Position numbers and translations under genes: made by a program | Assembly: GCA_029261065.1 (NCBI GenBank) | Contig: JAJDCB010000011.1 | Span: 175,168-239,167 of the forward strand | Direction of reading: 5' to 3' | DNA from: Candidatus Omnitrophota bacterium | Lineage (GTDB): Bacteria > Omnitrophota > Gorgyraeia > Zapsychrales > Zapsychraceae | Length of the DNA: 64,000 nt | The notes under the pieces: model-generated | What the model saw: the letters and a program-made list of their open reading frames with translations, nothing else | The model's database searches: none | Told to the model about the DNA's origin: nothing | In this document: piece after piece, positions 847 to 31,003 of the stretch | Position numbering within the stretch: position 1 is the first letter of the stretch | Layout of the letters: the number at the start of each line of letters is the position of its first letter

Positions 847-862
847 TCTATTGGCAGCCCAA

Positions 863-1375: not shown

Positions 1376-2482
1376 ATGTCATCTTTATACGTACATATTC
1401 CCTTTTGTCAGCGAAAGTGTTTTTATTGTTCATTTGTGGTTTCTATCGCACAAGAACAACGCATGGAATCGTATTGTCATTGTTTAGAAAAAGAAATGAG
1501 ACAGTATAAAGATGAAAGCTTAGATACAGTTTATATTGGTGGGGGGACGCCAACGTACCTAAAGGAAAATCAAATCGAATACTTGTTAAAGGCTATTCAC
1601 CAAAACTTCCAAATTTCTTCTAATTGTGAAATAACAATGGAAGCCAACCCAGAAGGGTTGACGCCTTTGAAATTAGATATCATAAAAAAATATGGTGTCA
1701 CCCGTTTAAGTTTGGGGGTGCAATCTTTAAATAATAATTTTTTAAAATACTTGGGCCGAAATCATAATTCTTTAAAAGCTTATGAAGCCTTTAAGCTTTT
1801 AAGAGAACACTCCTTTGATAACATTAATTGTGATCTTATGTTTTCTTTTCCACAACAAACATTGGAGCAATTAAATGAAGATTTAGATGCGATGATGACT
1901 TTAGAGAGTGATCATATATCTCTTTATGGATTAACGATTGAAGAAAGAAGTCGGTTTTTTGTCAAAAATACGATTCTTCCAGATAGTCATCTGCAAGCCG
2001 AGTTTTATACAACCATTCTCAAACGATTAGAAGCTAATGGGTACCAGCAATATGAAATTAGCAATTTTGCAAAACCAGGAAAAGAATCAAAACATAATTT
2101 GAATTATTGGCATGGAGGCAATTATAGAGGCGTAGGTATTGGAGCGCATTCTCATAAAGACGGTAAGCGTTTTTGGAACCTTTCTCAATTGACGCAATAC
2201 ATCAAATGCATAGAAGATGGATTGCCTGTTGTTGAGGAGGGTGAGGAATTAGCAGTACATACTCAAATGATGGAAACGATTTTGTTTGGATTAAGGATGA
2301 ATCAAGGTGTTGATATCAAAGCGATAGAAAGACGTTACGATTGTAGTGTTGATCAAAATACAACGCAACAAATAGAAAGTTTTATCAAAGAAGGGTTTTT
2401 AGTCAAAAGCGATGAGCGATTACAAACGACTCTGAAGGGAAAGTTAGTTTTAGATGAGATAAGTGTTAGATTGATTTCTTAG
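1376..2482 (+). CDS. hemW: Radical SAM family heme chaperone HemW / oxygen-independent coproporphyrinogen-III oxidase-like protein
   Basis: N-terminal HIPFCxxKCxYCSF radical-SAM cysteine motif; GGGTP(T/S) motif; ~370 aa, typical of the HemN-like family. Confidence 0.85.
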   Translation: MSSLYVHIPFCQRKCFYCSFVVSIAQEQRMESYCHCLEKEMRQYKDESLDTVYIGGGTPTYLKENQIEYLLKAIHQNFQISSNCEITMEANPEGLTPLKLDIIKKYGVTRLSLGVQSLNNNFLKYLGRNHNSLKAYEAFKLLREHSFDNINCDLMFSFPQQTLEQLNEDLDAMMTLESDHISLYGLTIEERSRFFVKNTILPDSHLQAEFYTTILKRLEANGYQQYEISNFAKPGKESKHNLNYWHGGNYRGVGIGAHSHKDGKRFWNLSQLTQYIKCIEDGLPVVEEGEELAVHTQMMETILFGLRMNQGVDIKAIERRYDCSVDQNTTQQIESFIKEGFLVKSDERLQTTLKGKLVLDEISVRLIS

Positions 2483-3551
2483 TGGTGTGCAGTTCTCTTA
2501 AGCGGTAACTATGTTGAAAAAGCTGGTGGATGGCATCTGCGATGATTGTTTTATATTTTTTATGCATTTTTAAACTATTTAGGATTTTGTTTGTTTTATC
2601 GATTCTTTCTTGAACGGCGTTAAGGCAATAGTCAAAACTGCCTGCGGCAACAAAAATTTTTCTAATAGTTACGAGATCTTGATAATTTTTAGTTTCCTTA
2701 TTAAAAATTTGAGTAAACTGTTTGCGTTTTTGAGCGGAAAGTTTGTTGTAGGCATGGCAAACAAGTAGAGTTTTCTTTGATTCGGCAAGATCACTTAAAA
2801 TTGATTTTCCGATATTTTTTTGAGAATCAAATATACCAATGATATCATCTTGGATTTGAAAGGCTTGTCCAACAAGAATCCCAAGTTCCGAAAGTTTTTT
2901 GATATCTTTATCATCAGCGCCTGCCAAAATGGCACCTGTGACAAGAGGACAATCAAATGTATAGCGAGCTGTTTTTAGCGTGTAATTTAAAAATACATCG
3001 CTTTCTTTAACTTTGCTTAGTTTTTCAACGCCATGAAGTGTATCAATAAATTCTCCCATCGCCGTGAACGCTGCCGTTTGAATAAAATATTTTAAAGCCC
3101 GCTCCTTACGTTTGGGTGTTTCTTTAATAGAAAGAAAAGCATCGATAGCAAAAGCGTAGACGATGTCTCCTGCAATAATTCCTAAATCATATCCTAACTT
3201 ATCACGATCTTCGGTTTTGATGATGCGTCCTAGAACTTTGTGGAGCGTTGGTTTTCCTCGCCTTAGATTAGAACGATCAATAATATCATCATGTATGAGC
3301 ATGAAGTTATGTAGGAGTTCGATACAGGTGGATGCGTTATATAAACTTTTTGATGTTTTTTTGTTTGGGCTGTATCCCTTATAGCTTAGAATTAAGAGGA
3401 GGGGGCGTAAGCGTTTGCCTTTGCGAAGGGAAAATTCGCGAATGCTCTCATATAGGATGGGATTAACAAGATGGAGTTTGTAATCAACTTTGATCTTATC
3501 CATGAAAGCTTCTAAGCTTTCTTCAATTTTTGCTCGAATTTCTGAAACCAT
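2466..3551 (-). CDS. Polyprenyl diphosphate synthase (trans-isoprenyl diphosphate synthase family; hepta/octaprenyl type)
   Basis: Two aspartate-rich motifs, LIHDDIIDRSNLRRGKPT (FARM) and FQIQDDIIG (SARM). Start moved to the internal Met (MVSEIRAK...) for a typical ~360-aa length. The 3' end overlaps hemW convergently by 17 nt. Confidence 0.8.
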   Translation of the reverse strand: MVSEIRAKIEESLEAFMDKIKVDYKLHLVNPILYESIREFSLRKGKRLRPLLLILSYKGYSPNKKTSKSLYNASTCIELLHNFMLIHDDIIDRSNLRRGKPTLHKVLGRIIKTEDRDKLGYDLGIIAGDIVYAFAIDAFLSIKETPKRKERALKYFIQTAAFTAMGEFIDTLHGVEKLSKVKESDVFLNYTLKTARYTFDCPLVTGAILAGADDKDIKKLSELGILVGQAFQIQDDIIGIFDSQKNIGKSILSDLAESKKTLLVCHAYNKLSAQKRKQFTQIFNKETKNYQDLVTIRKIFVAAGSFDYCLNAVQERIDKTNKILNSLKMHKKYKTIIADAIHQLFQHSYRLRELHTTKKSI

Positions 3552-3760
3552 GAGGCACATCGTATCACAGAAGAGTTTTCCATTCAATATATTTCATTGT
3601 CGAATGTCTTTTCAAACGGTATTAAAATGGTATACTTTACTATATATAGAGAAGAACTTAGAGAAGTGTTTGTAGAATAAAGGTCGTTAATCAGGCAGGC
3701 ATCACTTAAGATGAGCCACATCATTTTTTAAATAAAAGATGATGGAAATCTCGGGAGTTA

Positions 3761-4381
3761 TTGATGAAAAGAATATTATGGAGTTTGTTTTTTATGATGA
3801 TTTGTTGTGTTCCAGAATTGGGAGCAGAGATTGTCCATTTAAAAAGTGGGAATACAGTTATTGGACGAATTACGGAAAGATCTTCATATTATATTGTTAT
3901 TGATAAGGGAGGGGCTGTTGATAAAATATTTCTAAATGAAATTGAGAGTATAGAAGATGAGCCTGCTCCTTTAGAAAATTTTGACGTCGACGATTTTATT
4001 AAGGATGTCCAGATTCAATCCATTAAGTTTGATAGATCTAAATTTCTCGTGATTCCTGAGGAAAAAGTCGATCTTATCGTCAAATTTATGGTTGTCAATG
4101 GGGCTTATGGTCAGATGCAAATTGCATTGGAGCAAGCGATATTAGCAGCACCAAATGACAGGAGAAAGGAAATTAAGGATTTGTTTGTATTAAGTGAAAT
4201 TATCGAAAAATTGGTGCCTGTTTATCATGATTTATTTACTGAGGAAGATTTAACCGCGATGGTTAACTTTTTTGCAAGCCCTACCGGAAAGAAATTTAAG
4301 GATTCTATGCCTCAAATCTATGAGAGAACAGCCCAAGTGGTCATAGAGTACTTTCAGGAAAAACGTAAATTTGTGCTATAA
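3761..4381 (+). CDS. Hypothetical secreted protein (signal peptide)
   Basis: N-terminal hydrophobic signal MMKRILWSLFFMMICCVPELGAE; GGGAG SD upstream. No family recognised. Confidence 0.5.
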   Translation: MMKRILWSLFFMMICCVPELGAEIVHLKSGNTVIGRITERSSYYIVIDKGGAVDKIFLNEIESIEDEPAPLENFDVDDFIKDVQIQSIKFDRSKFLVIPEEKVDLIVKFMVVNGAYGQMQIALEQAILAAPNDRRKEIKDLFVLSEIIEKLVPVYHDLFTEEDLTAMVNFFASPTGKKFKDSMPQIYERTAQVVIEYFQEKRKFVL

Positions 4382-4616
4382 AATCAAATTTTTAAAGCCA
4401 ATCCTACCTAAATTATCCTCGTCCATCAATTACACTTTTGTAAATTCTTCGTAAGTTAGTTTATGTCATTATGATAAGATTCAAATATTATTAAATAATG
4501 GCTGGAAAAAAGTTTAAATTCCAGTAATTGACAGCTTTTATTTTAGGCTGTAAGTATATTTGTTTCAATGGTTTATAAAAGTACGTATAAAAAATAGTGC
4601 TAAATATTTTCTTTTT

Positions 4617-4645
4617 GTTTGACCTTAAAAATTTTCTTTGTTATA
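4617..4645 (+). promoter_or_regulatory. Candidate sigma70 promoter for the pur operon (TTGACC-17nt-TATATT)
   Basis: Hexamers read in the 300-bp intergenic region upstream of purB. AAAGGAG SD at 4669-4675. Confidence 0.35.
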
Positions 4646-4681
4646 TTAGTGAAGTTCAAAATTCGAAAAAGGAGCTAAAGC

Positions 4682-5977
4682 ATGATTGAGCGTTATACAC
4701 TATCAAAAATGGGTAATATCTGGTCGGAGAAGCATAAGATGGAAATTATGCTTAAAATTGAGGTTTTGGCTTGTGAAGCGATGTGTAAATTAGGCCAGAT
4801 TCCCAAGAAATCTTTAGAAAAGATTAAAAAGAACGCAAAATTTGATATTGATGAAGTAAAAAAATTAGAAGAAAAGACAAAGCATGATATTGTTGCTTTT
4901 ATCAATAATGTTGGAGCTTATATAGGCGCTGATTCCCGATACTTGCATATGGGGTTAACATCATCAGATCTTTTGGATACATCCCTTTCCGTTCAATGCG
5001 TTGAGTCAAGTGAGCTTCTTTTGGCAGACATCAAGAAGATGCTCAATGTGTTAAAACAAAAAGCAAAAAAATATAAAGACACCCCTTGTATTGCACGAAC
5101 ACATGGTGTTCATGCGGAACCTACCACATTTGGTTTAAAATTAGCTGTTTGGTACGACGAAATGAAGCGAAATGCTGATCGTATGGAACAAGCTAAAGAA
5201 ATGATGCGTTTTGGAAAACTTTCAGGGGCTGTGGGAACGTATGCTAACATTGATCCTTATGTTGAAGAATATGTTTGTGAAAAGTTAGAGCTTAAGCCCG
5301 CTAATATTGCCACTCAGATTATACAACGTGATCATCATTGTCAATTTGTTACGACGTTAGCCTTGATCGGTTCAACATTAAATAAAATTTCGACAGAAAT
5401 TCGTTTGCTTCAGAAAACAGAGGTGCTTGAAGTAGAAGAACCTTTTTTTAAAGGTCAAATCGGATCCTCGGCGATGCCTCATAAAAGAAATCCCGTTGCC
5501 TGCGAACGAGTATCGGGTCTTTCTCGTCTTTTAAGATCGAATGCTCAAGCATCGTTTGAAAATATTTCTCTATGGCATGAAAGAGACATTAGTCATTCGT
5601 CTGTCGAACGTGTTATCCTTCCAGACAGTGCGATCGCACTTAACTACATGTTTCATACAATAATTCCAATCTTAGATGGGTTATTAGTTTATCCTAAGCA
5701 TATGATTGATAGTTTATCGAAGACGAAAGGTCTTATTTACTCTCAACGTGTTCTTCTTGAGTTAATGAAAAAGGGTTTAACAAGAGAAGCTGCTTATGAA
5801 ATTATTCAGCGTTGTGCTATGCAGGTTTGGCAAGATACGTCTGATTTTAAAGATATTTTAAATCGTGATCGAAAGGTAAGAAAATATCTAAAGCCAAGCG
5901 ATATTGATGCTTGTTTTGATATTAAATATTATACTCGACATACAGATAAAATTTTTAAAAGAGTGGGTTTAAGATAA
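4682..5977 (+). CDS. purB: Adenylosuccinate lyase
   Basis: Characteristic N-terminus MIERYTLSKMGNIWSEKHK and the fumarate-lyase signature GSSAMPHKRNP; 431 aa. Confidence 0.95.
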   Translation: MIERYTLSKMGNIWSEKHKMEIMLKIEVLACEAMCKLGQIPKKSLEKIKKNAKFDIDEVKKLEEKTKHDIVAFINNVGAYIGADSRYLHMGLTSSDLLDTSLSVQCVESSELLLADIKKMLNVLKQKAKKYKDTPCIARTHGVHAEPTTFGLKLAVWYDEMKRNADRMEQAKEMMRFGKLSGAVGTYANIDPYVEEYVCEKLELKPANIATQIIQRDHHCQFVTTLALIGSTLNKISTEIRLLQKTEVLEVEEPFFKGQIGSSAMPHKRNPVACERVSGLSRLLRSNAQASFENISLWHERDISHSSVERVILPDSAIALNYMFHTIIPILDGLLVYPKHMIDSLSKTKGLIYSQRVLLELMKKGLTREAAYEIIQRCAMQVWQDTSDFKDILNRDRKVRKYLKPSDIDACFDIKYYTRHTDKIFKRVGLR

Positions 5978-5992
5978 ACTAAAAAACATAAA

Positions 5993-6709
5993 ATGGAACA
6001 GCTCATGGAAAAAAAAGAAAAACTATATGAAGGAAAAGCAAAGATTCTTTATGCAACAGACGATCCTGATCTTGTAATTCAGTATTTCAAAGATGATGCA
6101 ACCGCATTTAATGCGGCCAAAAAAGGAACTGTTGAATCAAAAGGGATCATGAATAACAAGATCTCGACAAAGATTTTTGAGTTTTTAGCTTCAGAAGGTA
6201 TTCCAACACATTTAGTCAAAATTCTCAGTGATAGAGAAATGTTGGTCAAAAAAGTTGATATTGTTTTGGTAGAGGTGATCATTCGTAATCGCGCTGCTGG
6301 GTCACTATGCCGTTTGCTTGGCATTGAAGAAGGTCGAGAGTTATCTGAACCCATTTTAGAGTTTTGTTATAAGCGCGATGATTTAGGCGATCCGTTGATT
6401 AATGAATATCATATTCATGCCTTAAACTTGGCGACCCCAGAAGAAATAGCAGCGATTCGAGATTACACATTTAAAGTAAATAAGTTAATGAGTAAATTCT
6501 TTGCAAATCTTCAGTTAGAACTTATTGATTTTAAATTAGAATTTGGACGTCATAAAGGCAAAATTATTCTGGCCGATGAAATTTCACCAGACACTTGCCG
6601 CATTTGGGAAGTTGGAACAGGCAAAAGACTTGATAAAGATCGATTTCGTCATGATTTAGGAAATATTGAAGAAGCTTATCAAGAAGTTCTAAGTCGCGTA
6701 AGTAAATAA
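5993..6709 (+). CDS. purC: Phosphoribosylaminoimidazole-succinocarboxamide (SAICAR) synthase
   Basis: LYEGKAKILYATDDP N-terminus and the SAICAR synthetase fold motifs; 238 aa. Confidence 0.95.
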   Translation: MEQLMEKKEKLYEGKAKILYATDDPDLVIQYFKDDATAFNAAKKGTVESKGIMNNKISTKIFEFLASEGIPTHLVKILSDREMLVKKVDIVLVEVIIRNRAAGSLCRLLGIEEGRELSEPILEFCYKRDDLGDPLINEYHIHALNLATPEEIAAIRDYTFKVNKLMSKFFANLQLELIDFKLEFGRHKGKIILADEISPDTCRIWEVGTGKRLDKDRFRHDLGNIEEAYQEVLSRVSK

Positions 6710-6811
6710 ATTTTGATCCTTACAAATTTTGTGTACTGAAAATTTTACCAAATCATAACACAAAATTTTTAAACCATACCCTGCACAATCATAACCTCTA
6801 CTAACAAATAC

Positions 6812-9715
6812 ATGATCTGGCGCATTGAAATAAAACAGAAGAATGGCGTGTTTGATCCCCACCGTGATAGTATACAAAAATCCATCGAAGAGCTTGGTTT
6901 AACTTCTATTACTGACGTTATTGTTGATCGTATTTTTTATCTTCATGGCGATTTAAACGAAACTCTCGTTCAAAAAATTGCTGATGAATTGTTGGTCGAT
7001 AAAATTACACAAGACTACACCTACACATCTAACTTCATATCTCTTAACAATACAAACGATAAAGAATGGAAAGCTATAGAAATTTCCTATAACCCTGGTG
7101 TTATGGATCCTGTTGAAGCCTCAACCGTTAAAGGGATTCGAGACTTGGGATGTCAGGGTGTTACATCCGTGCGTACGGCACAAAAATATTATCTTAAAGG
7201 AAAGGTTTCGAAGCAAAAGTTAGATCTTATTATCAATAAAGTATTATCTAATAAGCTGATTCAGCATGTTGTTGATTATAAGCAGATTGAAAAAAACTTT
7301 ATGCCTGTTGCAACGGATAATAAATTTGAATTGCTTCTAGTCGAATTGCTTAAAGCAAATGACTCTAAACTTAAAAAAATTAGTCAAGAGGGTCAGTTGT
7401 TTTTAAATCTTGATGAGATGAAAACAATACAAAAACATTATAAGAAATTAAAGCGTAACCCAACGGATGTCGAGCTTGAGACGATCGCGCAGACTTGGAG
7501 TGAGCATTGTTTTCACAAAACATTTAGAGGTAACATCCGTTATCAGTCTGTAGAAGGTGGGAAAAAGAAAACAACTTTAATTCGTAATTTGCTTAAATCA
7601 ACAATTGTTAAGGCAACCAAAGAGATTAATAAATCGTGGTGTGTTTCTGTCTTTGATGATAATGCGGGTGTAATAAAGTTTGATAAAGATTCTCATGTGT
7701 GCATTAAGGTAGAAACGCATAACCACCCATCAGCCCTCGAGCCTTTTGGTGGGGCTAATACAGGTATAGGTGGGGTCATTCGCGATATATTAGGAACGGG
7801 GCTTGGCGCAAAACCTATTTGTAACACGGATGTCTTTTGTTTTGCTTCTCCAGATATGGAATTTAAAGATGTCCCTCCTGGTTCTTTGCATCCAAAACGT
7901 GTGATGAAAGGTGTTGTTAGCGGTGTACGTGATTATGGAAATAAAATGGGTATTCCGACAGTCAATGGTTCCATTTTATTTGATGAAAAATTTGTGGGTA
8001 ATCCTTTAGTTTATTGTGGTAGTGTTGGAATTTTGCCGAAAGATAAAGTTAAAAAGAAAGTTTTTAAAGGTGATTTAGTTGTGGTTGTCGGTGGAAAGAC
8101 AGGCCGTGATGGGATTCATGGGGCGACATTTTCTTCGGGAGAATTAACGGATGAGTCAGAGGTTGTTTCCTCGGGTGCTGTTCAGATTGGTGATCCTATT
8201 CAAGAGAAGAAGGTTCTAGATGCGTTATTAAAAGCTCGAGACAAAAATCTTTATACCTCTATTACAGATTGTGGTGCGGGCGGTCTTTCAAGTGCTATTG
8301 GAGAAATGGGACAAGAGTTAGGGGCACGCATTGACTTGGATAAGGTTCCTTTAAAATATGATGGCTTGCGTTACATGGAAATTTGGATTTCAGAGTCTCA
8401 GGAACGTCTTGTTATGTCAGTAAGTCCAAAGAATGTAGATAAATTTTTACAAGTTTTTGCTGATGAAAATGTTGAGGCAACAGTGATCGGAGAGTTTGTC
8501 GATTCAAAACAGCTTGGCCTATTTTTTCATGGCTGTCAGGTGTGTGATTTAAGTATGGAATTTCTATTTGAAGGGACGCCACGAATTACGAAAGAGGCTG
8601 TTTGGAAAACGCCTAGGTTAAGCGAGCCAAAAATTCCTTTGAAGACTGATTTAAATGTCAAATTACTTGAAGCCTTGTCTCATTATAACGTTTGTTCCAA
8701 AGAATGGGTTGTGCGTCAATATGATCATGAAGTTCAGGGGGGAAGTGTTATCAAACCTTTTGTGGGACGTAAAAATGATGGGCCTTCAGATGCTGCTGTT
8801 ATTACACCTAAATTAGATTCAAATAAAGGGCTCGCTATCTCCAATGGTATTAATGTTCGTTTCGGTATGATTGACCCTTTTTGGATGGCAGCCTCTTGTA
8901 TTGATGAAGCGCTACGTCAAATTGTGTCCGTGGGTGGCGATGTTAGTAAAATTGCTATACTCGATAATTTTTGTTGGGGCAATCCTGATAAGCCGGACCG
9001 ATTAGGCTCTATGGTGCGCGCGTCACTTGGGTGTTATAAAGCGGCCGTCGCTTATCAAACACCTTTTATTTCCGGAAAAGATAGCTTGTACAATGAATAC
9101 ACCCAGGGGAAAAAATCAATTGCTATCCCCGGCACGATCTTAATCTCGGCTCTTGGTATTATCGAAGATGTTAGTAAAACGATTACCATGGATTTTAAAG
9201 GGCACGATAATCTTATTTATTGTGTAGGGCAAACATATGATGAGTTGGGCGGTTCGATTTATTTAGATACGTGTGGGTCGTTGGGAAAGAATGTGCCGAT
9301 TGTTAATTTTAAACAGGGGCTTAAAACATTTCAGGCGTTAACGGGTGCTGTTAAAAAGAGATTGATTGCTTCGATGCACGATTGTTCTGAAGGGGGGTTG
9401 GCGGTTGCCTTAAGTGAGATGGCGTTTAGCGGTGGGTTTGGAGTAAGTGTTCGATTAGATCATGTTCCTTATAAAGGAAAGACAAAGCGCAATGACAATA
9501 TTTTGTTTTCCGAATCCAATTCGAGATTTTTAGTCGAGGTGGATCCGAAGAATCAGAAAAAGTTTGAGAAGCAAATGGGTTCAGTTCCACATCGTTGCAT
9601 CGGCACAACAGAGAAGACGCCTGAGTTTATTGTTTATGGGGTTAAACAAGATGTATGCCTGAATGTGTATCTAAAAGATTTAAAGGAAGCGTGGAAAGCG
9701 CCATTACGTTTTTAA
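6812..9715 (+). CDS. purL: Phosphoribosylformylglycinamidine synthase: FGAM synthetase (PurL) fused to an N-terminal tandem PurS-like domain
   Basis: Residues ~1-90 and ~95-180 both resemble PurS (DPHRDSIQKSIEELG...; YNPGVMDPVEASTVKGIRDLG...). The PurL N-terminus starts at ...ETIAQTWSEHCFHKTF. No glutaminase domain; purQ is a separate gene. Confidence 0.9.
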   Translation: MIWRIEIKQKNGVFDPHRDSIQKSIEELGLTSITDVIVDRIFYLHGDLNETLVQKIADELLVDKITQDYTYTSNFISLNNTNDKEWKAIEISYNPGVMDPVEASTVKGIRDLGCQGVTSVRTAQKYYLKGKVSKQKLDLIINKVLSNKLIQHVVDYKQIEKNFMPVATDNKFELLLVELLKANDSKLKKISQEGQLFLNLDEMKTIQKHYKKLKRNPTDVELETIAQTWSEHCFHKTFRGNIRYQSVEGGKKKTTLIRNLLKSTIVKATKEINKSWCVSVFDDNAGVIKFDKDSHVCIKVETHNHPSALEPFGGANTGIGGVIRDILGTGLGAKPICNTDVFCFASPDMEFKDVPPGSLHPKRVMKGVVSGVRDYGNKMGIPTVNGSILFDEKFVGNPLVYCGSVGILPKDKVKKKVFKGDLVVVVGGKTGRDGIHGATFSSGELTDESEVVSSGAVQIGDPIQEKKVLDALLKARDKNLYTSITDCGAGGLSSAIGEMGQELGARIDLDKVPLKYDGLRYMEIWISESQERLVMSVSPKNVDKFLQVFADENVEATVIGEFVDSKQLGLFFHGCQVCDLSMEFLFEGTPRITKEAVWKTPRLSEPKIPLKTDLNVKLLEALSHYNVCSKEWVVRQYDHEVQGGSVIKPFVGRKNDGPSDAAVITPKLDSNKGLAISNGINVRFGMIDPFWMAASCIDEALRQIVSVGGDVSKIAILDNFCWGNPDKPDRLGSMVRASLGCYKAAVAYQTPFISGKDSLYNEYTQGKKSIAIPGTILISALGIIEDVSKTITMDFKGHDNLIYCVGQTYDELGGSIYLDTCGSLGKNVPIVNFKQGLKTFQALTGAVKKRLIASMHDCSEGGLAVALSEMAFSGGFGVSVRLDHVPYKGKTKRNDNILFSESNSRFLVEVDPKNQKKFEKQMGSVPHRCIGTTEKTPEFIVYGVKQDVCLNVYLKDLKEAWKAPLRF

Positions 9716-19447: not shown

Positions 19448-19522
19448 ATGTCGTCCCCGCTGAAATGACACGATTACTTGTTATTTCTACACCTATTTGT
19501 CATCCCCGCAAAAGCGGGGAAC
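19448..19522. repeat. Palindromic MITE/REP-like element copy (TGTCGTCCCCGC...TGACACGATTAC...TGTCATCCCCGCAAAAGCGGGGAA)
   Basis: Shares the core TCCCCGC-NNNN-GCGGGGA and the TGTCRTCC / TGACACGATTAC modules with copies at 216, 22680, 25155, 30858 and 62246. Confidence 0.8.
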
Positions 19523-20547: not shown

Positions 20548-20588
20548 TAATCTCTTCGATCTTAATGCAACACCTAATAAAGGTAGAA

Positions 20589-22667
20589 ATGATTAGAAAA
20601 TCCTTGGCTGGGCTATTAGCCCTTTGCGCTGTTCTTATCTTTTCAACATCCCTGTTAGCTTCTTCTCATCGAGAAGAACCTCTGATTTCCCCTTCTCTAG
20701 TCACACAAATCACACCCCAAGAAATAGAAAATTTACCTAACCCAGGCCGCAATTTTTCCGATTTTGCGAATATGACACCAAATGTTCATGTAGATGATAC
20801 GGTTGGGCAAGGGTCTGGATATGCTAATGTTGTTATTAGAAGAGAAGGCGCTGTTGGTGAATCTTTTAATCCACAGTTAGGTTCAACCCTAGGTGGTCCG
20901 CTGATAAAAGACAAATTGTGGTTTTTTGGAAATTTTTCAACGAGTCCCAGCAGTGGTATGACGCAGGCCCCAATCAGCAGCCTTCTACAAGGTGGTTTTG
21001 TCGATTTACAATTTACTGGCCGGGATAATCCTACAGGATATATTGGGGATCTCAATTTGCATAATAATACAGGCGATCTTTTCTTTGGGACGATGCCTAA
21101 TGGGACCAATCTTATCCCCAATGATCCATCCGTTCAAAGGATGTCAACGAGTGGTAATTTTGGTGGTCCTATTTTTCCTGGTTCAACATTTACTACTCCT
21201 TTAAATGGATTTTGTAACGATCACAGCTCTTTTCCTCCGCCTGCTACTTTTTCACAACCCCTTTCTTTAACAACCCCCAATGCACAGAGTTCTACAACGA
21301 TTTCAGACGATAGTTCTACGCCAAAAGTTGATCTTACGCGTTGGGCCGTTTTGCAAAGCGGTATTGATCCTTCTAAAGATTTTTATATTACGGCCGATGC
21401 CATAAACCTTTTTAACGAAGATTATGTTATTGCAAAAGTGCCTGGCATTTCTACGGATTATTTAACGGAATTAGCCACGTTACCAGATCTGTCTAACATT
21501 GTAGATACGATGATTCAGAATAATGAGATCAAACCAACGGGCTTGCCTAGTCAAATGAATAGAGACACTACCATTCAATGGAGCACGTGGTTGTTTAGAG
21601 ACAATTTTGATATTCAAAGTGGTGAGAAAAAGATAGAAGATCAAGTAGAACAGTCGGGAGGATCGCAGACATCTGAACAAATTCAAGAGTTGAATGAAAA
21701 CATATGGGGTAATATTCGTTTGGTTAACAAAAAGTTAAAAGAGAATGTTGTAGCAACAGCGCCTAAGATAGCCGATAAACCTAAGGAAGAATGTCCAAAG
21801 TCATTTCGTGAGCAAATGTTGGAACGAGAGTTAAAACAAAAAATGCGGGAAAAAGGTTTGGTTGAAGATTCTTTAGAGAGAATGAAAGGCTGGTTAGAAG
21901 AAATTAATAGCGATCCGGATTATGATGAAAAGACAAGTAAGTATTCAAAAAGCGGGTTACGTCGAGATATTGGGACGACAAAGGGTTTTCTAGATGAGAT
22001 TAATCAAGCGATTGATGATTTAACTAAGCAAATTGAAGAAGAAAGGAAAAAGGATAAATGTAAAGATAAGACGAGTTTTCGTGTTTTTGAATTTTTTGAA
22101 ATGCTTGTTGATGCGATCACACTAACAAATCCTGCTTTTGCTGATGGCGATATTGTTCTTTCGCTAGATGAAGCACGAGCGCAAGCTTTTCGAGCGATTG
22201 ATAAAGCCTTATATGTTTATACGAAGCTTCAACATCTAACGTTTGATTTAGAAAAAATTGCTGAGACTCCGTATGCTAAGAAAAAATCAAAGTTAAAAAA
22301 GAAAGTATTAAAACAGATACGTACCGAGTTAGGAGAGTTGCAGCTTTTTATGCACACATCAAAAGCTAAGTTTGATAAAACAAAGAAATTAACTGATAAG
22401 AACTTTCTTGAGGTTCGAGACATCAATGGCCATCTTTATGTGAAGGGCGGGGCGTTTGATAAATACTGGAGAAGCGTTGAATCTCGATTGGAAAAAAATT
22501 ATGCAAAGTGGGATGACGCGTATTTAAAATTGCTTGAGAGAAGTGAGCAATCTAAACGAGAAGGAAAAGATTATTTGGCTGATTTCAATCGAGATGAGGC
22601 TGAGTTTTTTAAGGTGTTTTCGAGGGTGAAGTTGTATTGGTTGGTTTTGGAAAAAATATATAATTAA
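20589..22667 (+). CDS. Large secreted protein of unknown function, paralog A (signal peptide; N-terminal beta-rich region; C-terminal K/E-rich coiled-coil region)
   Basis: Signal MIRKSLAGLLALCAVLIFSTSLLASS. It shares motif blocks (NPTGxIG, VQRMS, HPPPA, IxPTGLP, TGGSQTxEQIxxLNENxWGNxRLVxKK, C-terminal FFxVFSxVKLY) with the 22835 gene. Confidence 0.7.
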   Translation: MIRKSLAGLLALCAVLIFSTSLLASSHREEPLISPSLVTQITPQEIENLPNPGRNFSDFANMTPNVHVDDTVGQGSGYANVVIRREGAVGESFNPQLGSTLGGPLIKDKLWFFGNFSTSPSSGMTQAPISSLLQGGFVDLQFTGRDNPTGYIGDLNLHNNTGDLFFGTMPNGTNLIPNDPSVQRMSTSGNFGGPIFPGSTFTTPLNGFCNDHSSFPPPATFSQPLSLTTPNAQSSTTISDDSSTPKVDLTRWAVLQSGIDPSKDFYITADAINLFNEDYVIAKVPGISTDYLTELATLPDLSNIVDTMIQNNEIKPTGLPSQMNRDTTIQWSTWLFRDNFDIQSGEKKIEDQVEQSGGSQTSEQIQELNENIWGNIRLVNKKLKENVVATAPKIADKPKEECPKSFREQMLERELKQKMREKGLVEDSLERMKGWLEEINSDPDYDEKTSKYSKSGLRRDIGTTKGFLDEINQAIDDLTKQIEEERKKDKCKDKTSFRVFEFFEMLVDAITLTNPAFADGDIVLSLDEARAQAFRAIDKALYVYTKLQHLTFDLEKIAETPYAKKKSKLKKKVLKQIRTELGELQLFMHTSKAKFDKTKKLTDKNFLEVRDINGHLYVKGGAFDKYWRSVESRLEKNYAKWDDAYLKLLERSEQSKREGKDYLADFNRDEAEFFKVFSRVKLYWLVLEKIYN

Positions 22668-22679
22668 TATGATTATGTT

Positions 22680-22810
22680 GAGATCCCCGCTTTCGCGGGG
22701 ATGACAATATTGTTTTCTTATAGGGTGCAGCGAAATAGAAAAAGTGTCGTCCTCGCTCCATTTGTCATTCCCGCGAAAGCGGGAATCCATGGGGCGGGGA
22801 TGACACTATT
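22680..22810. repeat. Composite palindromic MITE/REP-like element (two palindromic units plus a conserved linker CGAAATAGAAA..GTGTCGTCC)
   Basis: TCCCCGCTTTCGCGGGGATGACAATATT ... CGAAATAGAAAAAGTGTCGTCC ... TGTCATTCCCGCGAAAGCGGGAAT ... GGGGATGACAC. About 95 bp are near-identical to the copy at 30858. Confidence 0.85.
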
Positions 22811-22834
22811 AATTTAAAAAAACGGGAGATACTC

Positions 22835-25153
22835 ATGCGCAAAATTTTCACAGCATTATCAATGTTTATTCTATTTACATCCCCAGTCCATGCCATGGAC
22901 GTTGTCATGACTCCAGAAGATTCTGTTGAATGTCCATCAGCGTGTCCATGCTGTGATGATATTATTCCAAATTTAAAAAACAATATGGAAGATTTCAATG
23001 AATATATTGATGACATGAAGAAATATACAGAAGAAAACTATGATTTTAAAAAGGTAAGGCAAAATCACACGGTACGTCAAGATGCGGTTAATCGATCGCA
23101 AAGTTCTGATAGAGATACATCGCGTCAAGGTCATTCCGATTATAGAGATATTGCAGAAAAATTTAAGGACAAGGAAGCTAGTATTACAGAGGATCATAAT
23201 GACATTGATGACTCCTTAGATGACATGGAGCAGATGGCCCAAGATATTATTGCAGATATTGACAAGTTAAAAAACTGTCCTTGTTGGGCTGAAGTTTTAG
23301 AATGTTGTGGAGGTGTCTTGTGTGAACGGTTTCTTTCAGATCGCGCGCAGACAGCTAAAGATTTTCTTGAGAATAAATTGCCTGATTTAAAAAAGAATAA
23401 TGGTTTAGCAAGAAACGGGGCTATGGCGGTTGTGTTAAGTTATAGTGAAGACGCCCAACGCGTTGCAAAAGATGCGATGAAAAATTTACAAAAAGGTTTT
23501 CAAGATCTTTGGAAGTTTGATCCGAGCATTGTTAAAAAGATTGGCGATTGTTGTAAAAAGGGGAAAGACGAATGTTTTGAAGATACCGTCGCTGGCGATT
23601 ATGCATTACCTTTAGATTGGTTGACAGATAGTGGATCAGCCTTAATTGATTTTACGGGTGCTAATAATCCTACAGGGGATATTGGATCTATAGCTGTAAC
23701 AAATCTTACTGGAAAGCCAATGACATTTACTGTGCCAGCAGGAAGTGTTTTAAGTACAGGAGACAACACCGTTCAGCGGATGTCTGTTACTGAGGGTATT
23801 AGAGGAACGGTTAATCCAGGTGAGACTGTTAATTTCCCAGTCCATGGCGTTTGCATGGATTCAACTCTTCACCCGCCACCAGCTTCGACAACAAGTGATA
23901 TAAGTCTCCCAGGTCTTCCTGATTTTTCAGATCTTTTTTCAGGTTTAAATTTAACTCCATCCTCTGGAAGTTTTTGGAAAGACCATGGACTTGATTCGTT
24001 GTTTGGAAATTTAGATGATTTAAAAGAAGAATATGGAGATAAATTGGGCGGCCTTTTGGTTGATGCCTTACCATTTTTTGGAGTTACACCAGACCAAATT
24101 AAACAAATACTTGAAGAGCTTGAACAAGATCAGCAAACAGATATTGATGCGCAATATGATGACATCTTGGATCATTTATGGGAAGAACTTAACACTATGG
24201 GTTTTTCCTCAGAAGTATTTGTTGATATTGCGTTAACAGAGTTCCTTGAAGATTACTTAGATGATCTTTATAAATTTGGTTTAATACCACCCACAGGTCT
24301 TCCTATAGAAACCGAACGAGAAACGCTTTTGCAATGGTTGTATTGGTCGGTCTTAGATGGGTTCGATGAAATGGATGGAGAAAATAAAATAGCGACTGAG
24401 GTAGAAGAAACGGGTGGATCTCAGACGCCTGAACAAATTGCACAATTAAATGAGAACTTGTGGGGCAATGTGCGATTGGTTAAAAAGAAAGCCAAGGAAG
24501 ATCTTACAAATGCAGCCGGCGGGAGTAACACGGGTGCTTTTAAGAGAAAACAAAATTTTTATCAACTTGTCTTAAACTGGCAAAGTGCTTTGAGCGGCTT
24601 AAAGAATATTGTTACTCTGCCGGAAGCTCACGCGCAGAAGTCTTTAAGTATAGAAGAACAGAGGGTTCAGACAGCAAATGCCATGAGACGATTTCAAACA
24701 GTGAAATCTTCTTTGATCAACTTTACATTTGATGTTGAAAATTTAGTTAAGAATGCTGTCTCAATGAAGATTGCTAAAACAAATCAATCAACAGCCGAGT
24801 TTACACGGGCTCAACTTGCTGGTTTAACTCAACAGATTAAAGCCGGTCGACCGACGGTCAACAAAGAGACCGGCATGGATCAGGCGTATTTACAAAGTGT
24901 ATATGCCCACACGCATCAGTTTGTAAAAAAAGATGGAACATTTAACAGCACATGGAAAGACATCAAAAATGATTTGGGTGGTGTTTATAAGAAATGGGAG
25001 GCTAAATATAAAAAGCTTCTTTCTAAAAGCCGTAAGTCTGTTAAGAAGGGTAATCATTATTTAGAAAAGTTGGACCGTGATGAGAGGAAATTTTTTGTTG
25101 TGTTTTCTAAAGTGAAGTTGTATACGATGATTTTGGATAGTATTTATAAATAA
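22835..25153 (+). CDS. Large secreted protein of unknown function, paralog B (Cys-rich N-terminal region)
   Basis: Signal MRKIFTALSMFILFTSPVHA; strong SD (GGGAGA). It carries about 13 Cys in its first ~250 aa, where paralog A is Cys-poor. It shares the motif blocks with paralog A. Confidence 0.75.
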   Translation: MRKIFTALSMFILFTSPVHAMDVVMTPEDSVECPSACPCCDDIIPNLKNNMEDFNEYIDDMKKYTEENYDFKKVRQNHTVRQDAVNRSQSSDRDTSRQGHSDYRDIAEKFKDKEASITEDHNDIDDSLDDMEQMAQDIIADIDKLKNCPCWAEVLECCGGVLCERFLSDRAQTAKDFLENKLPDLKKNNGLARNGAMAVVLSYSEDAQRVAKDAMKNLQKGFQDLWKFDPSIVKKIGDCCKKGKDECFEDTVAGDYALPLDWLTDSGSALIDFTGANNPTGDIGSIAVTNLTGKPMTFTVPAGSVLSTGDNTVQRMSVTEGIRGTVNPGETVNFPVHGVCMDSTLHPPPASTTSDISLPGLPDFSDLFSGLNLTPSSGSFWKDHGLDSLFGNLDDLKEEYGDKLGGLLVDALPFFGVTPDQIKQILEELEQDQQTDIDAQYDDILDHLWEELNTMGFSSEVFVDIALTEFLEDYLDDLYKFGLIPPTGLPIETERETLLQWLYWSVLDGFDEMDGENKIATEVEETGGSQTPEQIAQLNENLWGNVRLVKKKAKEDLTNAAGGSNTGAFKRKQNFYQLVLNWQSALSGLKNIVTLPEAHAQKSLSIEEQRVQTANAMRRFQTVKSSLINFTFDVENLVKNAVSMKIAKTNQSTAEFTRAQLAGLTQQIKAGRPTVNKETGMDQAYLQSVYAHTHQFVKKDGTFNSTWKDIKNDLGGVYKKWEAKYKKLLSKSRKSVKKGNHYLEKLDRDERKFFVVFSKVKLYTMILDSIYK

Positions 25154-25154: not shown

Positions 25155-25252
25155 GTCGCACGGGTCCCCGATTAAAGCATTCGGGGATGACACGATTACG
25201 CTGTCTCCCTGTGCTTTTTAAATAATGTCGTCCCCGCGAAAGCGGGGATCCA
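25155..25252. repeat. Palindromic MITE/REP-like element copy
   Basis: GGGTCCCCG-ATTAAAGCAT-TCGGGGATGACACGATTACGCTGTC ... TGTCGTCCCCGCGAAAGCGGGGATC. Shares the TGACACGATTAC module with the 19448 copy. Confidence 0.8.
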
Positions 25253-25265: not shown

Positions 25266-28200
25266 ATGCTAATAAGATTTCTTCTTTGTGCCGTATTTTC
25301 ATTTTTTGCGCTAACCTCAACTTCCCTCGCCGACCCCGACAGCGTCAACTGGGAAAACATCAATCTCAATTATAAAGCCCCCAAGGCCCCTGTCGAAGAT
25401 AAACAAGATGATACAACGGATAATCTAGTATCAATGCCATCTTTTGAGTATCGACCAGACTCTTTTTTAGATGCGCGCATTGATTTTGAATATTTACTGA
25501 CAGAGCAGAATGGTTTATCCCATCACAAGGATATGGTTTCTTCTACAGCGACATCAAGTCATCTAAATGCTATCAATCAAGATACCATTTTTATTGATAA
25601 TCAAATAAATGCCTTTCAGTATGATTTTGGACGTTCTTTTAATGCGACGCGAGGCGGAGCATTAACACCTATTGAACAACGGGCCTTTGCTACAAATCCT
25701 AATTCTAGTGCTTTTACAATTGATCATGTTCCTACGGGTTTACATTTTGTTACTCCGGATAATCCTTTTACAGATAATGGTTTGCGTTACAATTCGCCGA
25801 TGCTATTTGACGGTAATAATAATTTAATCAGAACTTCCAATCCGTTATTTAATGAGTTTGTTCCCCAGTCAGGGGCTTTTGGTAATCCTGGGGGAGAGTT
25901 GTTTCCGCCAGGAGGATCTTCTGGAATTTCACCTATTAGTGGTTTTGGTACACAGCCACCTGGGGCAACAACCGGTACGCCAGATTCATTTTATGTCAAT
26001 GATACATGGCAGTTAAATGATAAATGGTCTTTTAATACGGGAACACGATTTGATGATCCATCTGGTGCGCCAACGACAGGTGGGAATCAAATAGGTGGTT
26101 TTGGAACGCCGTTTCCACCATCTTTAACAGGTAGTCCTTTTGGCACGCCAGGATTACCAGGTGAGACCAACGGGATTCATGGTCCGATGATTGGGTGTGG
26201 ACGCGTGAATAACGAATGCACCTTGGTTGTCTATGATGCGTCTGGTGCGACGGTGGGAAGTGTTACGGCCGATGAATTATCTGCAGATCCCTATCGTACA
26301 ACCAATTTATTAAATCTCGCCGAGACACGCAGCCGTGATTATTTTGGTGATGATGTTTTTGGCGATTCGAATATTGATCCTATTTTTGCCGATGGATTTG
26401 AATCAGGTGATACATCCGCATGGACAGATTCAGCAGGAAGCGGATCAACAACGCCAAGAGGCAATACATCAACAGAAAATAATGTTTCTCCTGATGCTAT
26501 CTTTGCCGATGGGTTTGAATCGGGGGATACTTCTGCGTGGTCAGATTCACCAAGTGGGGGATCAACAGCGCCAAGTAATAATAATTCGAGTAATGATACA
26601 AATTCAGCTCCAGCTCCAACTCCAACAGCGCCGGATAATGCTGCAGAAATTGCAAGTTTGAAGGATCAAATTAAAGGTATGAAAAAAGGTCTAGATGCGG
26701 CACCCGCAGGAGGAGACAGTTTAGCGAATGCTATGTATGATACTCTCAAAGATAGTTTAGCGAATGCAGAAGCACGTCTGACGGAATTGCAGGGACAAAA
26801 TAATACGACACCAACACCTTCTGAAACAAATTTAAGTTCTCAGCCAGCACCACCTTTGGCGTACGAGGGGCCGTTTAGTCCAACAACAAGATTAGATGGA
26901 GAAAGCGTATATGGATTTCCAAATGCGAGTGCGGGTTCTCCTTCTTCAAGATCGCAGTTAAATTTTGACACCTCATTTACAGGCACAGATCGTTTACAGC
27001 AACATATACCGTCGGGTTACGCTCCTGGAAACGATGCGTCTTTTGGTCAATTTCAAAGGGGATCAACCCTTGAACCGTTTAACCCTTTTGCAAACAATAA
27101 TACCTTCACCGATAGCGCTAGTCAATATCCTCCAGTCAGCGACACGTTTAATCCATCTGCTATGGCAGTAACACGTCTTGGAAATTCTCCAGGAGACACA
27201 GCACATTTAGCCGGCATTCTTAACAGTACGCTCAGTTGTCGCTCTTCCGGCTATGGGCCAAATTGTTTTGACGTATTAGTAAAGTGTGAGGTTTATATTT
27301 ATGTGACGGAAGATGGAAAGGTCTACATTGTGGCTGATAAAGATAGAAAGGCCACAGACAAAACGCCGAATGATCCGTATTACTTTACTGAAGTTAAAAA
27401 GAAAAAGAAGTTGCTTGGTATTATTGGAAGTAATAAAAAGCCTAAGATTAGTATTGGTAGTAATATGAAAATCGGGAAGTCGGTACTTGGGGCAGGGAGC
27501 AGCATCTCTAAGAAAAAATCAAATATTAAAGATCAATGGGGAATCCGTGATGTTGGGTTTTTACCAACAACAGATCCTAATTCTGCTTGGAATTTAGTGG
27601 ATTCAGAAAAACGCAATGTAACCATCGCCATGATTGATTCCGGTCTTGATATGGAACATCCGGATGGACCCAAATATATTTGGAAAAACGAAGGGGAAAT
27701 TCCAGGCAATGGCATTGATGATGATAACAACGGTTATATCGATGATGTTAATGGTTGGAATTTTTTGGATAATAATAATGATCTAACCGACTATAGAGGC
27801 CATGGGACGTTTACCACCGGTATCGTTGCCGCTAAACGTAACAATGGTATTGGGATTGCAGGAATAAATCCAGGCGCTGTCATTATGCCGCTTAAGGTTA
27901 CGGATGATGAGGGTTTAAGCAATAGCATTAATATTTTTCGTGCTGTGAAGTATGCTGTTGATAATGGTGCGAAGATCATCAATATTTCTATCGCAGGCAA
28001 AGAGTTATCAAAAATTTTACAGCTCGCTTTTAATTATGCGCATCGTAAAAATGTGTTAGTTGTTGTTGCTAGTGGAAATGAAGGTGAGTCTCTTGAGGAT
28101 TATGGGCCTGGTGGAGCACAACACGTTATGGCAATTGGGGCTGTTGATTATGGCGGAACGCATAGTGTTATTTCAAGTTGGGGACCGAATAATGCTTTAT

Positions 28201-28793
28201 TAGCTCCAGGTGAAGAAATTTTTTCACTGGCTTCAAAGGATGCGAAAAAGATTTTGCCATCATTACGTAAAGCGGGGATTTATTCTCAATCCGGAACATC
28301 TTATTCGGCACCCATGGTTGCTGCAACAGCATCATTGTTGTTAACGAAATATCCTCATCTAACAAGTGGACAGCTTGAAGATATTATTGTGAGTACATCC
28401 GTAGATATGGGAGAAGAAGGTTGGGATGATAAGAATGGGGCTGGTTTATTGAATGCTGCAGCAGCACTACAATTTAATCAGGATGAGATTCTTCATGTGA
28501 AGTTTAATAAGATTAAAATTAATAAAAACGAAAAGGGAAAGCTTCTGAATGTTGATGTGTTTGCCACCGTGCAAGGAAATATTGAGGAGTTTAGTGTTGA
28601 GGCGGGTAAGAAAAAGATCGCTAAGAAATTTAAGACGGTAGCAGGTCCTTTTAAAGTTCATGCAGATAATAGTTGGGTGGCTCGCATTGATGCAAAGGAT
28701 TTAAAAGGGAATAAAAATTGGACCATTCGTTTAAATGCGTTACACAAAGATGGAACAACAAAAACAGCAAAATCTATCATAACTCTTAATTAA
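25266..28793 (+). CDS. Secreted S8 family (subtilisin-like) serine peptidase with a ~700-aa low-complexity G/P/T/S/N-rich N-terminal extension and a C-terminal accessory domain
   Basis: Catalytic triad contexts IAMIDSGLD (Asp), HGTFTTGIVAA (His) and GTSYSAPMVAATASLL (Ser). Signal peptide; strong SD. Tandem IFADGFESGDTSAW(T/S)DS repeats in the extension. Confidence 0.85.
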   Translation: MLIRFLLCAVFSFFALTSTSLADPDSVNWENINLNYKAPKAPVEDKQDDTTDNLVSMPSFEYRPDSFLDARIDFEYLLTEQNGLSHHKDMVSSTATSSHLNAINQDTIFIDNQINAFQYDFGRSFNATRGGALTPIEQRAFATNPNSSAFTIDHVPTGLHFVTPDNPFTDNGLRYNSPMLFDGNNNLIRTSNPLFNEFVPQSGAFGNPGGELFPPGGSSGISPISGFGTQPPGATTGTPDSFYVNDTWQLNDKWSFNTGTRFDDPSGAPTTGGNQIGGFGTPFPPSLTGSPFGTPGLPGETNGIHGPMIGCGRVNNECTLVVYDASGATVGSVTADELSADPYRTTNLLNLAETRSRDYFGDDVFGDSNIDPIFADGFESGDTSAWTDSAGSGSTTPRGNTSTENNVSPDAIFADGFESGDTSAWSDSPSGGSTAPSNNNSSNDTNSAPAPTPTAPDNAAEIASLKDQIKGMKKGLDAAPAGGDSLANAMYDTLKDSLANAEARLTELQGQNNTTPTPSETNLSSQPAPPLAYEGPFSPTTRLDGESVYGFPNASAGSPSSRSQLNFDTSFTGTDRLQQHIPSGYAPGNDASFGQFQRGSTLEPFNPFANNNTFTDSASQYPPVSDTFNPSAMAVTRLGNSPGDTAHLAGILNSTLSCRSSGYGPNCFDVLVKCEVYIYVTEDGKVYIVADKDRKATDKTPNDPYYFTEVKKKKKLLGIIGSNKKPKISIGSNMKIGKSVLGAGSSISKKKSNIKDQWGIRDVGFLPTTDPNSAWNLVDSEKRNVTIAMIDSGLDMEHPDGPKYIWKNEGEIPGNGIDDDNNGYIDDVNGWNFLDNNNDLTDYRGHGTFTTGIVAAKRNNGIGIAGINPGAVIMPLKVTDDEGLSNSINIFRAVKYAVDNGAKIINISIAGKELSKILQLAFNYAHRKNVLVVVASGNEGESLEDYGPGGAQHVMAIGAVDYGGTHSVISSWGPNNALLAPGEEIFSLASKDAKKILPSLRKAGIYSQSGTSYSAPMVAATASLLLTKYPHLTSGQLEDIIVSTSVDMGEEGWDDKNGAGLLNAAAALQFNQDEILHVKFNKIKINKNEKGKLLNVDVFATVQGNIEEFSVEAGKKKIAKKFKTVAGPFKVHADNSWVARIDAKDLKGNKNWTIRLNALHKDGTTKTAKSIITLN

Positions 28794-30857: not shown

Positions 30858-31003
30858 GGTCCCCGCTTTCGCGGGGATGACAATATTATTTTTACTTGGC
30901 ACCGTGGTGTTACGAAATAGAAATCGTGTCGTCCCCGCGTAGGCGGGGATTCGTGCGCCATAATTACTATTACTTGATCCCCGCTTCCACGGGAATGACA
31001 TGA
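30858..31003. repeat. Composite palindromic MITE/REP-like element (three palindromic units)
   Basis: GTCCCCGCTTTCGCGGGGATGACAATATT ... CGAAATAGAAATCGTGTCGTCCCCGCGTAGGCGGGGAT ... GATCCCCGCTTCCACGGGAATGACA. Closely related to the 22680 copy. Confidence 0.85.

Follow-up and report, generated by a model that had tools for sequence, protein, structure and literature searches.

A rare family of secreted proteins with an invariant Gln and Cys, possibly related to thioester domains, encoded beside a subtilase gene in an Omnitrophota genome

Thioester domains (TEDs) are carried by the TIE adhesins of Gram-positive bacteria, among them SfbI, CpTIE, BaTIE and pLS20 TIE. In another secreted system, the dentilisin of Treponema, the S8 protease PrtP is accompanied by the accessory proteins PrcA and PrcB. 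Three motifs characterise TEDs: [YFL]C-phi-zeta, which contains the bond-forming Cys and lies on a strand; TQxx-phi-W, located on helix alpha2 and contacting the Cys; and phi-Q-zeta-phi-phi, which contains the bond-forming Gln and lies on the last strand. The Cys and the Gln are the only universally conserved residues of these domains (PMC4450167, PMC6194298). Here we describe two adjacent genes, A and B, in a 64,000-nucleotide stretch of a Candidatus Omnitrophota genome (assembly GCA_029261065.1, contig JAJDCB010000011.1, positions 175,168 to 239,167 of the forward strand; hereafter the window). They encode secreted paralogs belonging to a family with counterparts of all three motifs and with one Gln and one Cys conserved in every complete module, and they are followed by a gene for a secreted subtilase (Table 1).

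An initial annotation of the window, made from the sequence alone, had proposed that A and B are paralogs, and the comparison of the two proteins bears this out. BLASTP aligned their central parts over 342 columns (117 bits, E=2e-31) and, in a second segment, their C-terminal 169 residues (94.7 bits, E=4e-24). When the residues of B were shuffled 50 times, alignment to A yielded 18.7 bits on average and never more than 23.5. Thus, the similarity is not compositional; a purely compositional one would, according to the annotation, have refuted its proposal. As paralogy goes, the pair is an ordinary one. The six collinear blocks listed at that time were all found in both proteins: FTGRDNPTGYIGD in A and FTGANNPTGDIGS in B; VQRMST and VQRMSV; GFCNDHSSFPPPA and GVCMDSTLHPPPA, which contain the invariant Cys; IKPTGLP..TIQW and IPPTGLP..LLQW; GGSQTSEQIQELNENIWGNIRLVNKKLKE and GGSQTPEQIAQLNENLWGNVRLVKKKAKE, identical at 22 of 29 positions; and FFKVFSRVKLY..LEKIY and FFVVFSKVKLY..LDSIY. 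The N-terminus of A, as read from the sequence, resembles a signal peptide (MIRKSLAGLLALCAVLIFSTSLLA), and so does that of B. Position 20589, the start used for A in the annotation, is an internal ATG (MIRKSL) of the open reading frame and would give a protein of 692 aa (P0002).

Three parts make up each protein: a variable head; a core in which a variable disordered linker joins a beta-sandwich to four helices; and a C-module of about 170 aa, which is helical as well. The AlphaFold2 (AF2) model of the A core, built for residues 134-398 from a 35-sequence alignment, has a mean predicted local distance difference test score (pLDDT) of 83, with 94-98 in the ordered parts. In the numbering of this construct, the sandwich strands fall within 13-103, disorder extends over ~105-160 and the helices span 164-185, 196-212, 217-231 and 237-264; the invariant Cys terminates the strand 75-84, and Q205 and W209 lie on the second helix. 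In the full-length model of B (pLDDT 79.9) a helical head occupies residues 38-252 and the sandwich 258-340; a linker that is helical in part connects the latter to the helical subdomain (459-562), and the helical C-module comes last (606-771). The conserved block represented by GGSQTSEQIQELNENIWGNIRLVNKKLKE and GGSQTPEQIAQLNENLWGNVRLVKKKAKE corresponds to the alpha3-alpha4 loop and most of helix 4, the last helix of the core (pLDDT >90). Within the close subfamily it is the most conserved stretch, and in the wider family only its W, L/V and K positions are well conserved. Relatives that lack a fused C-module end 5-10 residues after the block, which therefore marks the end of the core domain and the junction with the C-module. 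The annotation had read the block as a functional site. The stretch is indeed real and strongly constrained, but it does not stand by itself, forming the loop and last helix of a folded subdomain.

A and B belong to a rare, unannotated family of Omnitrophota-type genomes. Neither protein was matched above noise by any Pfam, NCBIfam or PADLOC model, and a profile of the A and B cores found no match among PDB sequences. A word-index protein search retrieved only B itself when queried with B, and nothing when queried with a three-sequence core alignment. An exhaustive HMMER search of 1.84 billion representatives with the shared core gave 102 clusters at E<=1e-3, of which 12 were at E<=1e-30; a metagenome scan added one further locus only, and the sole relative among reference genomes was a Candidatus Omnitrophota metagenome-assembled genome (MAG). 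We aligned 90 complete beta modules, no two of them from the same 50%-identity cluster, by means of a hidden Markov model (HMM); just two columns, a Gln and a Cys, were conserved at 100%. The Gln (Q191 in A, Q314 in B) lies in the sequence VQRMS, which is YQRM-like in the family. The Cys follows 26 residues later (C217 in A, C340 in B; GYCLD, then P..PP, in the family); it terminates the last long strand, within the motif G[YF]C[LA]D...PP, and from this strand the chain passes on to the helical subdomain. The helical module has a Trp conserved at 100% and, four residues before it, a Gln conserved at 95% (Q338/W342 in A, Q500/W504 in B). These residues lie on the second helix of the bundle, in family motifs of the forms T[VI]IQRALW and TITQWTIW. 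The initial list of motifs took in these sequences but passed over the most informative feature, the invariant Gln/Cys pair with its TED-like motifs.

All three types of TED motif have counterparts in the family. The Cys motif reads GFCND in A and GVCMD in B, and its Cys, which terminates a predicted strand, is kept in all 90 modules; the invariant Gln lies in a motif resembling phi-Q-zeta-phi-phi (YQRM here, YQRLM in pLS20); and the second predicted helix carries Q-x-x-phi-W, resembling the helix motif of the TEDs of PF08341 and PF20610. Like TEDs, the proteins are secreted, combine beta and helical subdomains and have a Cys and a Gln as their sole universally conserved residues. The Pfam TED model (PF08341) was also the most recurrent weak match, with 7 of 35 domain-only sequences matching at E<=10 (best E=1.1e-4). 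Family member P0030 scored 21.2 bits on this model, the cut-off being 22. Its residues 299-410, from GYC (Cys301) to beyond TVIQRALW (360-367), aligned with positions 2-99 of the 102 in the profile. Throughout the family, it was the Cys motif on which TED matches were anchored. By way of comparison, the class II TED encoded by plasmid pLS20, which has been validated genetically, itself reaches no more than 23.6 bits on PF08341. In this TED, VYCIDPDKPAPYG and SSYQRLMSS are similar to GYCLDPEKLPPA and YQRM[IVF] of the family, and hhalign, run with the family profiles against the pLS20 TED, picked exactly those two segments (E ~0.007).

The HMM mapping separated the family matches into three modules, namely beta (~95 aa), helical (~85 aa) and C-terminal (~170 aa), with a linker of ~20 to 400 aa, depending on the member, between the first two. 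In 67 proteins the beta module is accompanied by the helical one, which mostly lies at the extreme C-terminus of the protein. Core and C-module are fused in A, B, P0003, P0004, P0011 and the L018 protein. Stand-alone C-modules are secreted proteins of ~235 aa (P0016, P0018, P0019 and others). In the Omnitrophota MAG (locus L001), the core protein of 416 aa stops six residues past its copy of the conserved block (...LNENIWAGIDLVKKEVTKR), and the gene for a 238-aa C-module protein with its own signal peptide overlaps the stop codon of the core gene. The same order, with the C-module gene directly after the core gene, is found in L002/L003, L008, L009 and L010 and hence, with L001, in all five loci that have a stand-alone C-module. 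That the two parts are fused in some genomes and split in others indicates that core and C-module work together.

The subtilase encoded downstream of B belongs to the S8 family, with a score of 162.5 bits on PF00082 (cut-off 21.8). Its catalytic domain comprises residues 783-1060 (positions 27612-28445) and is preceded by a long extension of low complexity; the motifs IDSGLD, HGTFTTG and SGTSYSAP, read from the translation, contain DSG, HGT and GTS. Over 551 aa the protein is 45% identical to the subtilase whose gene precedes the core gene in L001. An S8 gene is adjacent in four of the five informative loci, namely the window, L001, L002/L003 and L011, which contains the gene for the B-like P0004. 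As in dentilisin, a secreted or surface-located S8 protease is found beside secreted partners that are not catalytic; a sequence relation of A or B to PrcA or PrcB was not seen, though no search was aimed at one. The window subtilase gave a partial match to the NCBIfam model denti_PrtP and scored higher on the mycosin model, below the cut-off of the latter.

We postulate, with a probability of about 0.4, that the core is a remote, rewired TED-like module that captures its target through a reactive Cys and acts together with a protease. A and B are natural fusions, each uniting two partners that are encoded elsewhere by separate adjacent genes. The Cys would form, or be able to form, a reactive thioester-type centre with one conserved Gln, through which the secreted protein would bind covalently to a nucleophile presented by a partner or a target surface. 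The subtilase encoded next to it would process the protein, either in the linker or at the fusion junction, or would be delivered by it. Of this picture, the paralogy, the modular build, the invariance of the Gln and Cys, the fusion and fission with the C-module and the linkage to S8 genes are observed; kinship with TEDs, any covalent chemistry, the choice of the Gln and the part played by the protease are inferred. Unlikely, in our judgement, is the bolder version in which the core is a genuine, circularly rewired TED and the first such covalent capture module outside Gram-positives, made in two-gene form or fused with its helical partner, equipped with a dedicated subtilase and used by Omnitrophota-type, possibly epibiotic or predatory cells to latch onto target cells or polymers. 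If a Cys/Gln thioester does form, the covalent chemistry of adhesion known from Gram-positive pathogens would also exist in an uncultured candidate phylum, with a different chain topology that would be of interest for protein evolution and as a new self-reactive scaffold for protein ligation; core, C-module and subtilase would then make up a small secreted machine in organisms about whose cell-cell interactions almost nothing is known. Even without a thioester, the domain family is clearly delimited, yields confident models, lacks a Pfam entry and provides, in a single Cys and a single Gln, a clear experimental handle.

A number of results weigh against relatedness to TEDs and against the proposed chemistry. 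A and B gave no TED match at E<=1, and no family member reached the Pfam cut-off; the Pfam scans showed no match to PF20610 (TED_2), the double-module proteins had no TED match, and NCBIfam returned no thioester or TQXA match. The family profile, in native or in permuted order, found no TED among PDB sequences, a weak test given that the pLS20 TED, which is genuine, finds no PDB TED either; the word-index search with the pLS20 TED returned two close relatives only, too few for a TED profile. Foldseek comparison of the A core and full-length B models with the PDB gave nothing at or below 1e-3, and indeed nothing below E=0.1; the top rows for both models were generic sandwiches or helical bundles, and there was no TED in the top 50. 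The hhalign matches to the two pLS20 motifs have a probability of ~5%. The order of the elements is Gln, Cys, helices, with the Gln motif 26 residues before the Cys, whereas TEDs have the Gln last, after the Cys and the helices; here no further strand comes after the helices, with which the unfused proteins end. Moreover, the invariant Gln may not adjoin the Cys, as geometric reasoning on a canonical sandwich puts a residue that begins strand 5 and one that ends strand 7 at opposite poles. This geometry makes the helix Gln an alternative partner for the Cys; that Gln is replaced by Glu in 3 of 61 members. The members with Glu (P0031, P0082 and P0091; IERALW) retain the invariant Cys and the upstream Gln. 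The fold also differs, being a sandwich with four helices instead of the six-stranded barrel and three-helix bundle of TEDs, and the domain is C-terminal within the core protein, whereas that of TIE adhesins is N-terminal. Pfam and NCBIfam scans found no LPXTG anchor and no isopeptide or ester stalk domains; A and B end in the helical C-module. The hosts are Omnitrophota-type genomes here and Gram-positives in the case of TEDs, and in the literature searched we found no paper linking thioester domains with Omnitrophota, Planctomycetes or diderm bacteria. As to the protease, L010 has a core and C-module pair without an adjacent S8 gene, and in L018, where the contig is cut at the 5' end of the fused gene, there is none in the 3.5 kb downstream.

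These results can be accommodated if the core is a non-covalent scaffold, an immunoglobulin-like sandwich and a helical bundle that bind proteins or glycans or assemble the C-module, with a structural or redox role for the Cys and Gln and with TED motifs that are convergent or due to chance. The absence of a TED fold match, the failure of every TED sequence signal to reach threshold and the permuted order of the motifs, which does not fit a TED, all point this way. The 35-sequence family profile matched, among PDB sequences, only designed armadillo-repeat proteins (5mfi; helix EEVIQEAVWAIAN) at E=1e-10 to 1e-11, through the helical module (residues 478-507 of B, for example), and the profile in permuted order did so again. 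We rejected this match as a helix similarity amplified by repetition, four repeats each matching one helix-turn-helix. A QxxxW motif on a helix is therefore not diagnostic by itself, and its recurrence in armadillo helices without any chemistry favours a scaffold. Similarly, the uncharacterised DUF4232 (PF14016) matches the same beta module, weakly and always below cut-off, over its first ~70 residues in 6 of 35 members; being a family of no known function, it adds no mechanism. On the other hand, packing can hardly explain why secreted domains sharing ~20% identity should keep, in 90 cases out of 90, a lone unpaired Cys and an equally invariant Gln, nor would one expect the TED matches to be anchored so consistently on the Cys motif. 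On balance, we regard a purely non-covalent role as the main rival, somewhat less probable than the capture module. The core could also be a substrate, a bait-type inhibitor or a maturation factor of the adjacent subtilase, which by cleaving in the disordered linker or at the junction after the block would expose the reactive Cys. The linkage of S8 genes fits such a partnership, as do the position of the linker between the Cys-bearing sandwich and the helices and the occurrence of a caspase/Peptidase_C14 domain in the same polypeptide in P0081. By analogy, alpha2-macroglobulin and complement would share with the proposed proteins secretion, a buried reactive Cys/Gln, a protease-sensitive disordered segment and coupling to a protease. 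However, A and B have GFCND and GVCMD in place of the CxEQ motif of alpha2-macroglobulin and C3, and they lack the alpha/alpha-toroid TED and the chain of macroglobulin (MG) domains; no match to the A2M family was found for them in Pfam or NCBIfam, and the only structural echo of complement in Foldseek was an MG domain of cobra venom factor (E ~0.4). As the L010 pair lacks an S8 gene and most distant members have no protease nearby, we regard this alternative as quite improbable.

Less probable still is the interpretation given in the initial annotation, where the block served as a processing or anchoring signal and the head of B was a metal-binding or disulfide-rich effector head swapped in. 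The block does show the highest conservation in the close subfamily and does lie at the fusion junction, and the Cys clusters of the head are kept in P0003; but the block is predicted to be an integral helix of a folded bundle and not an exposed linear motif, and the Cys-bearing head recurs in relatives, as described below. We would attach very little weight to a helical pore-forming effector, in which the head and C-module insert into membranes. This idea arises from the top Foldseek rows for full-length B, which include SmhB and AhlB, components of tripartite alpha-pore-forming toxins. The matches (E 0.5-0.7, probability <=0.13, TM-score <0.2) are like those to generic helical bundles, no hydrophobic hairpin was noted, and the idea was rejected as the matches are not significant.

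The initial annotation had also described a Cys-rich N-terminal module in B that is absent from A, and this proved correct. Twelve Cys residues (33, 37, 39, 40, 148, 150, 157, 158, 163, 239, 240 and 247) occur in the first 250 residues of B, slightly fewer than the ~13 counted earlier; the thirteenth, C340, is the family-invariant residue and lies outside the head. They form the clusters CxxxCxCC, CxCx6CCx4C and CCx6C, located in the AF2 model at or near the ends of helices (38-61, 71-88, 93-146, 161-202, 205-223 and 230-252; pLDDT mostly >90). The Cys residues of A are at 21, in the signal peptide, at 217, the invariant position, and at 410 and 499, with no counterpart of the clusters. Of the B-like proteins from other samples, P0003 keeps the clusters and P0004 does so in part. 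The head of B aligns with the helical N-terminal region of relatives of 416-420 aa, including a CC..C / EC cluster immediately ahead of the beta module, and its last cluster aligns with a Cys (KEC, KNC or RNC) that precedes the beta module in most relatives of 416-451 aa. Judging from these alignments, it looks like the usual head of the family with added cysteines. The head of A has two collinear Pfam matches, to Plug (residues 43-92, E=0.053, 14.5 bits, cut-off 23.9) and then to OMP_b-brl_4 (residues 104-145, E=0.0031, 16.4 bits, cut-off 30), the sequence resembling the start of a TonB-receptor barrel being GGPLIKDKLWFFGNF. It had no sequence match in the PDB and no paralog within the window. 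This head may be the remnant of a TonB-dependent receptor gene fused onto the paralog, and at most a remnant; the two pieces together make up ~100 residues and both are below the Pfam cut-offs. Since the B-type head is common to P0003, P0004 and the other relatives, A is more likely to be the product of a head replacement after duplication. Hence, of the original suggestion that a head had been swapped onto a shared scaffold, the shared scaffold with different heads stands, but the direction of the swap was probably the reverse, the odd head being that of A.

Table 1. Coordinates of genes, modules, invariant residues and palindromes in the window.
Feature	Position in window	Strand	Residues	Basis or remark
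Gene A	20565..22667	+		700-aa ORF (open reading frame); secreted paralog without Cys-rich head
A head, weak TonB-receptor-like pieces (Plug start, then first barrel strands)	20691..20999	+	43-145	Pfam
A beta-sandwich module	20964..21239	+	~134-225	AF2, pLDDT 94-98
A invariant Gln	21135-21137	+	191	Conserved in 90/90 modules
A invariant Cys	21213-21215	+	217	In GFCNDHSSFPPPA; conserved in 90/90 modules
A variable, mostly disordered linker from beta module to helical subdomain	21240..21464	+		pLDDT 41-59
A helical subdomain	21465..21749	+	~301-395	AF2; second helix Q338..W342 (IQWSTW)
A copy of conserved block GGSQTSEQIQELNENIWGNIRLVNKKLKE	21657..21743	+	365-393	Loop and last core helix
A C-module, helical	22158..22664	+	~532-700	BLASTP segment E=4e-24; stand-alone homologues ~235 aa
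Two GC-rich REP-like hairpins TCCCCGC-N4-GCGGGGA, A-B gap	22684..22785			Repeat scan
Gene B	22835..25153	+		772-aa ORF (P0001); secreted paralog with Cys-rich head
B Cys-rich helical head	22931..23590	+	33-252	12 Cys, three clusters
B beta-sandwich module	23606..23890	+	258-352	AF2, family alignment
B invariant Gln	23774-23776	+	314	Family alignment
B invariant Cys	23852-23854	+	340	In GVCMDSTLHPPPA; family alignment
B helical subdomain	24209..24520	+	459-562	Q500..W504 (LQWLYW)
B copy of conserved block GGSQTPEQIAQLNENLWGNVRLVKKKAKE	24413..24499	+	527-555	Alignment, AF2
B C-module, helical bundle	24644..25150	+	~604-772	BLASTP, AF2
REP-like hairpin, B-subtilase gap	25231..25248			Repeat scan
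S8 subtilase, secreted	25266..28793	+		1175 aa; Pfam Peptidase_S8 E=1.8e-47
All copies of TCCCCGC-N4-GCGGGGA	19503-19520, 22684-22701, 22768-22785, 25231-25248, 30860-30877, 30932-30949, 30978-30995			

The A-B-subtilase cluster is flanked by housekeeping genes, upstream by those for SHMT, NrdR-like, CCA-adding-enzyme-like and Macro-NUDIX proteins, the NrdR-like and CCA-adding-like names being readings of the translations and not family matches, and downstream by genes for YceI and a short-chain dehydrogenase. The palindrome TCCCCGC-N4-GCGGGGA is present in seven copies in the window, against 0.01 expected by chance, and all seven are found around the cluster, within intergenic gaps or at their margins. 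They appear to form a family resembling repetitive extragenic palindromic (REP) elements and may act as hairpins at transcript ends or as recombination sites. A scan for promoters and terminators between 20300 and 29500 gave counts equal to those in shuffled sequences.

Signal peptides or lipoboxes occur throughout the family. Lipoprotein-type signals (…LCMVAGC…, …CMISGC…) were seen in the product of L010 5701-6981 and in P0017; part of the family is, from such signals, probably membrane-anchored and not free. P0020, P0021 and P0022 contain, outside the core, HExxH strings noticed by eye (HEKGH, HEFTH, HEFHH), for which Pfam gave no match; these strings hint at fused metalloprotease-like regions. 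P0081, a distant member, has TPR repeats in addition to its caspase/Peptidase_C14 domain. Other distant members occur in unrelated contexts, adjoining genes for TPR proteins or a transposase. In L005/L006/L007 (8001-8699), the gene for P0033, a minimal member of 232 aa, overlaps the stop codon of a gene for a 4801-aa exoprotein with a TPS domain, a position that is the usual slot of an accessory or immunity gene, and is followed by a DUF6941 gene. In L011 a giant gene (positions 1-9033; at least 6249 aa, with HEAT, methyltransferase and asparaginase matches) lies just upstream of the P0004 gene, and a DUF805 gene separates P0004 from the 1449-aa S8 protease. Finally, the extension of the window subtilase contains a duplicated motif, IFADGFESGDTSAW(T/S)DS, at 26391-26432 and 26508-26549 (residues ~376-389 and ~415-428), and the same motif, as PIFTDGFESGDTSAWSTEAP, ends the otherwise unrelated tail of P0009.

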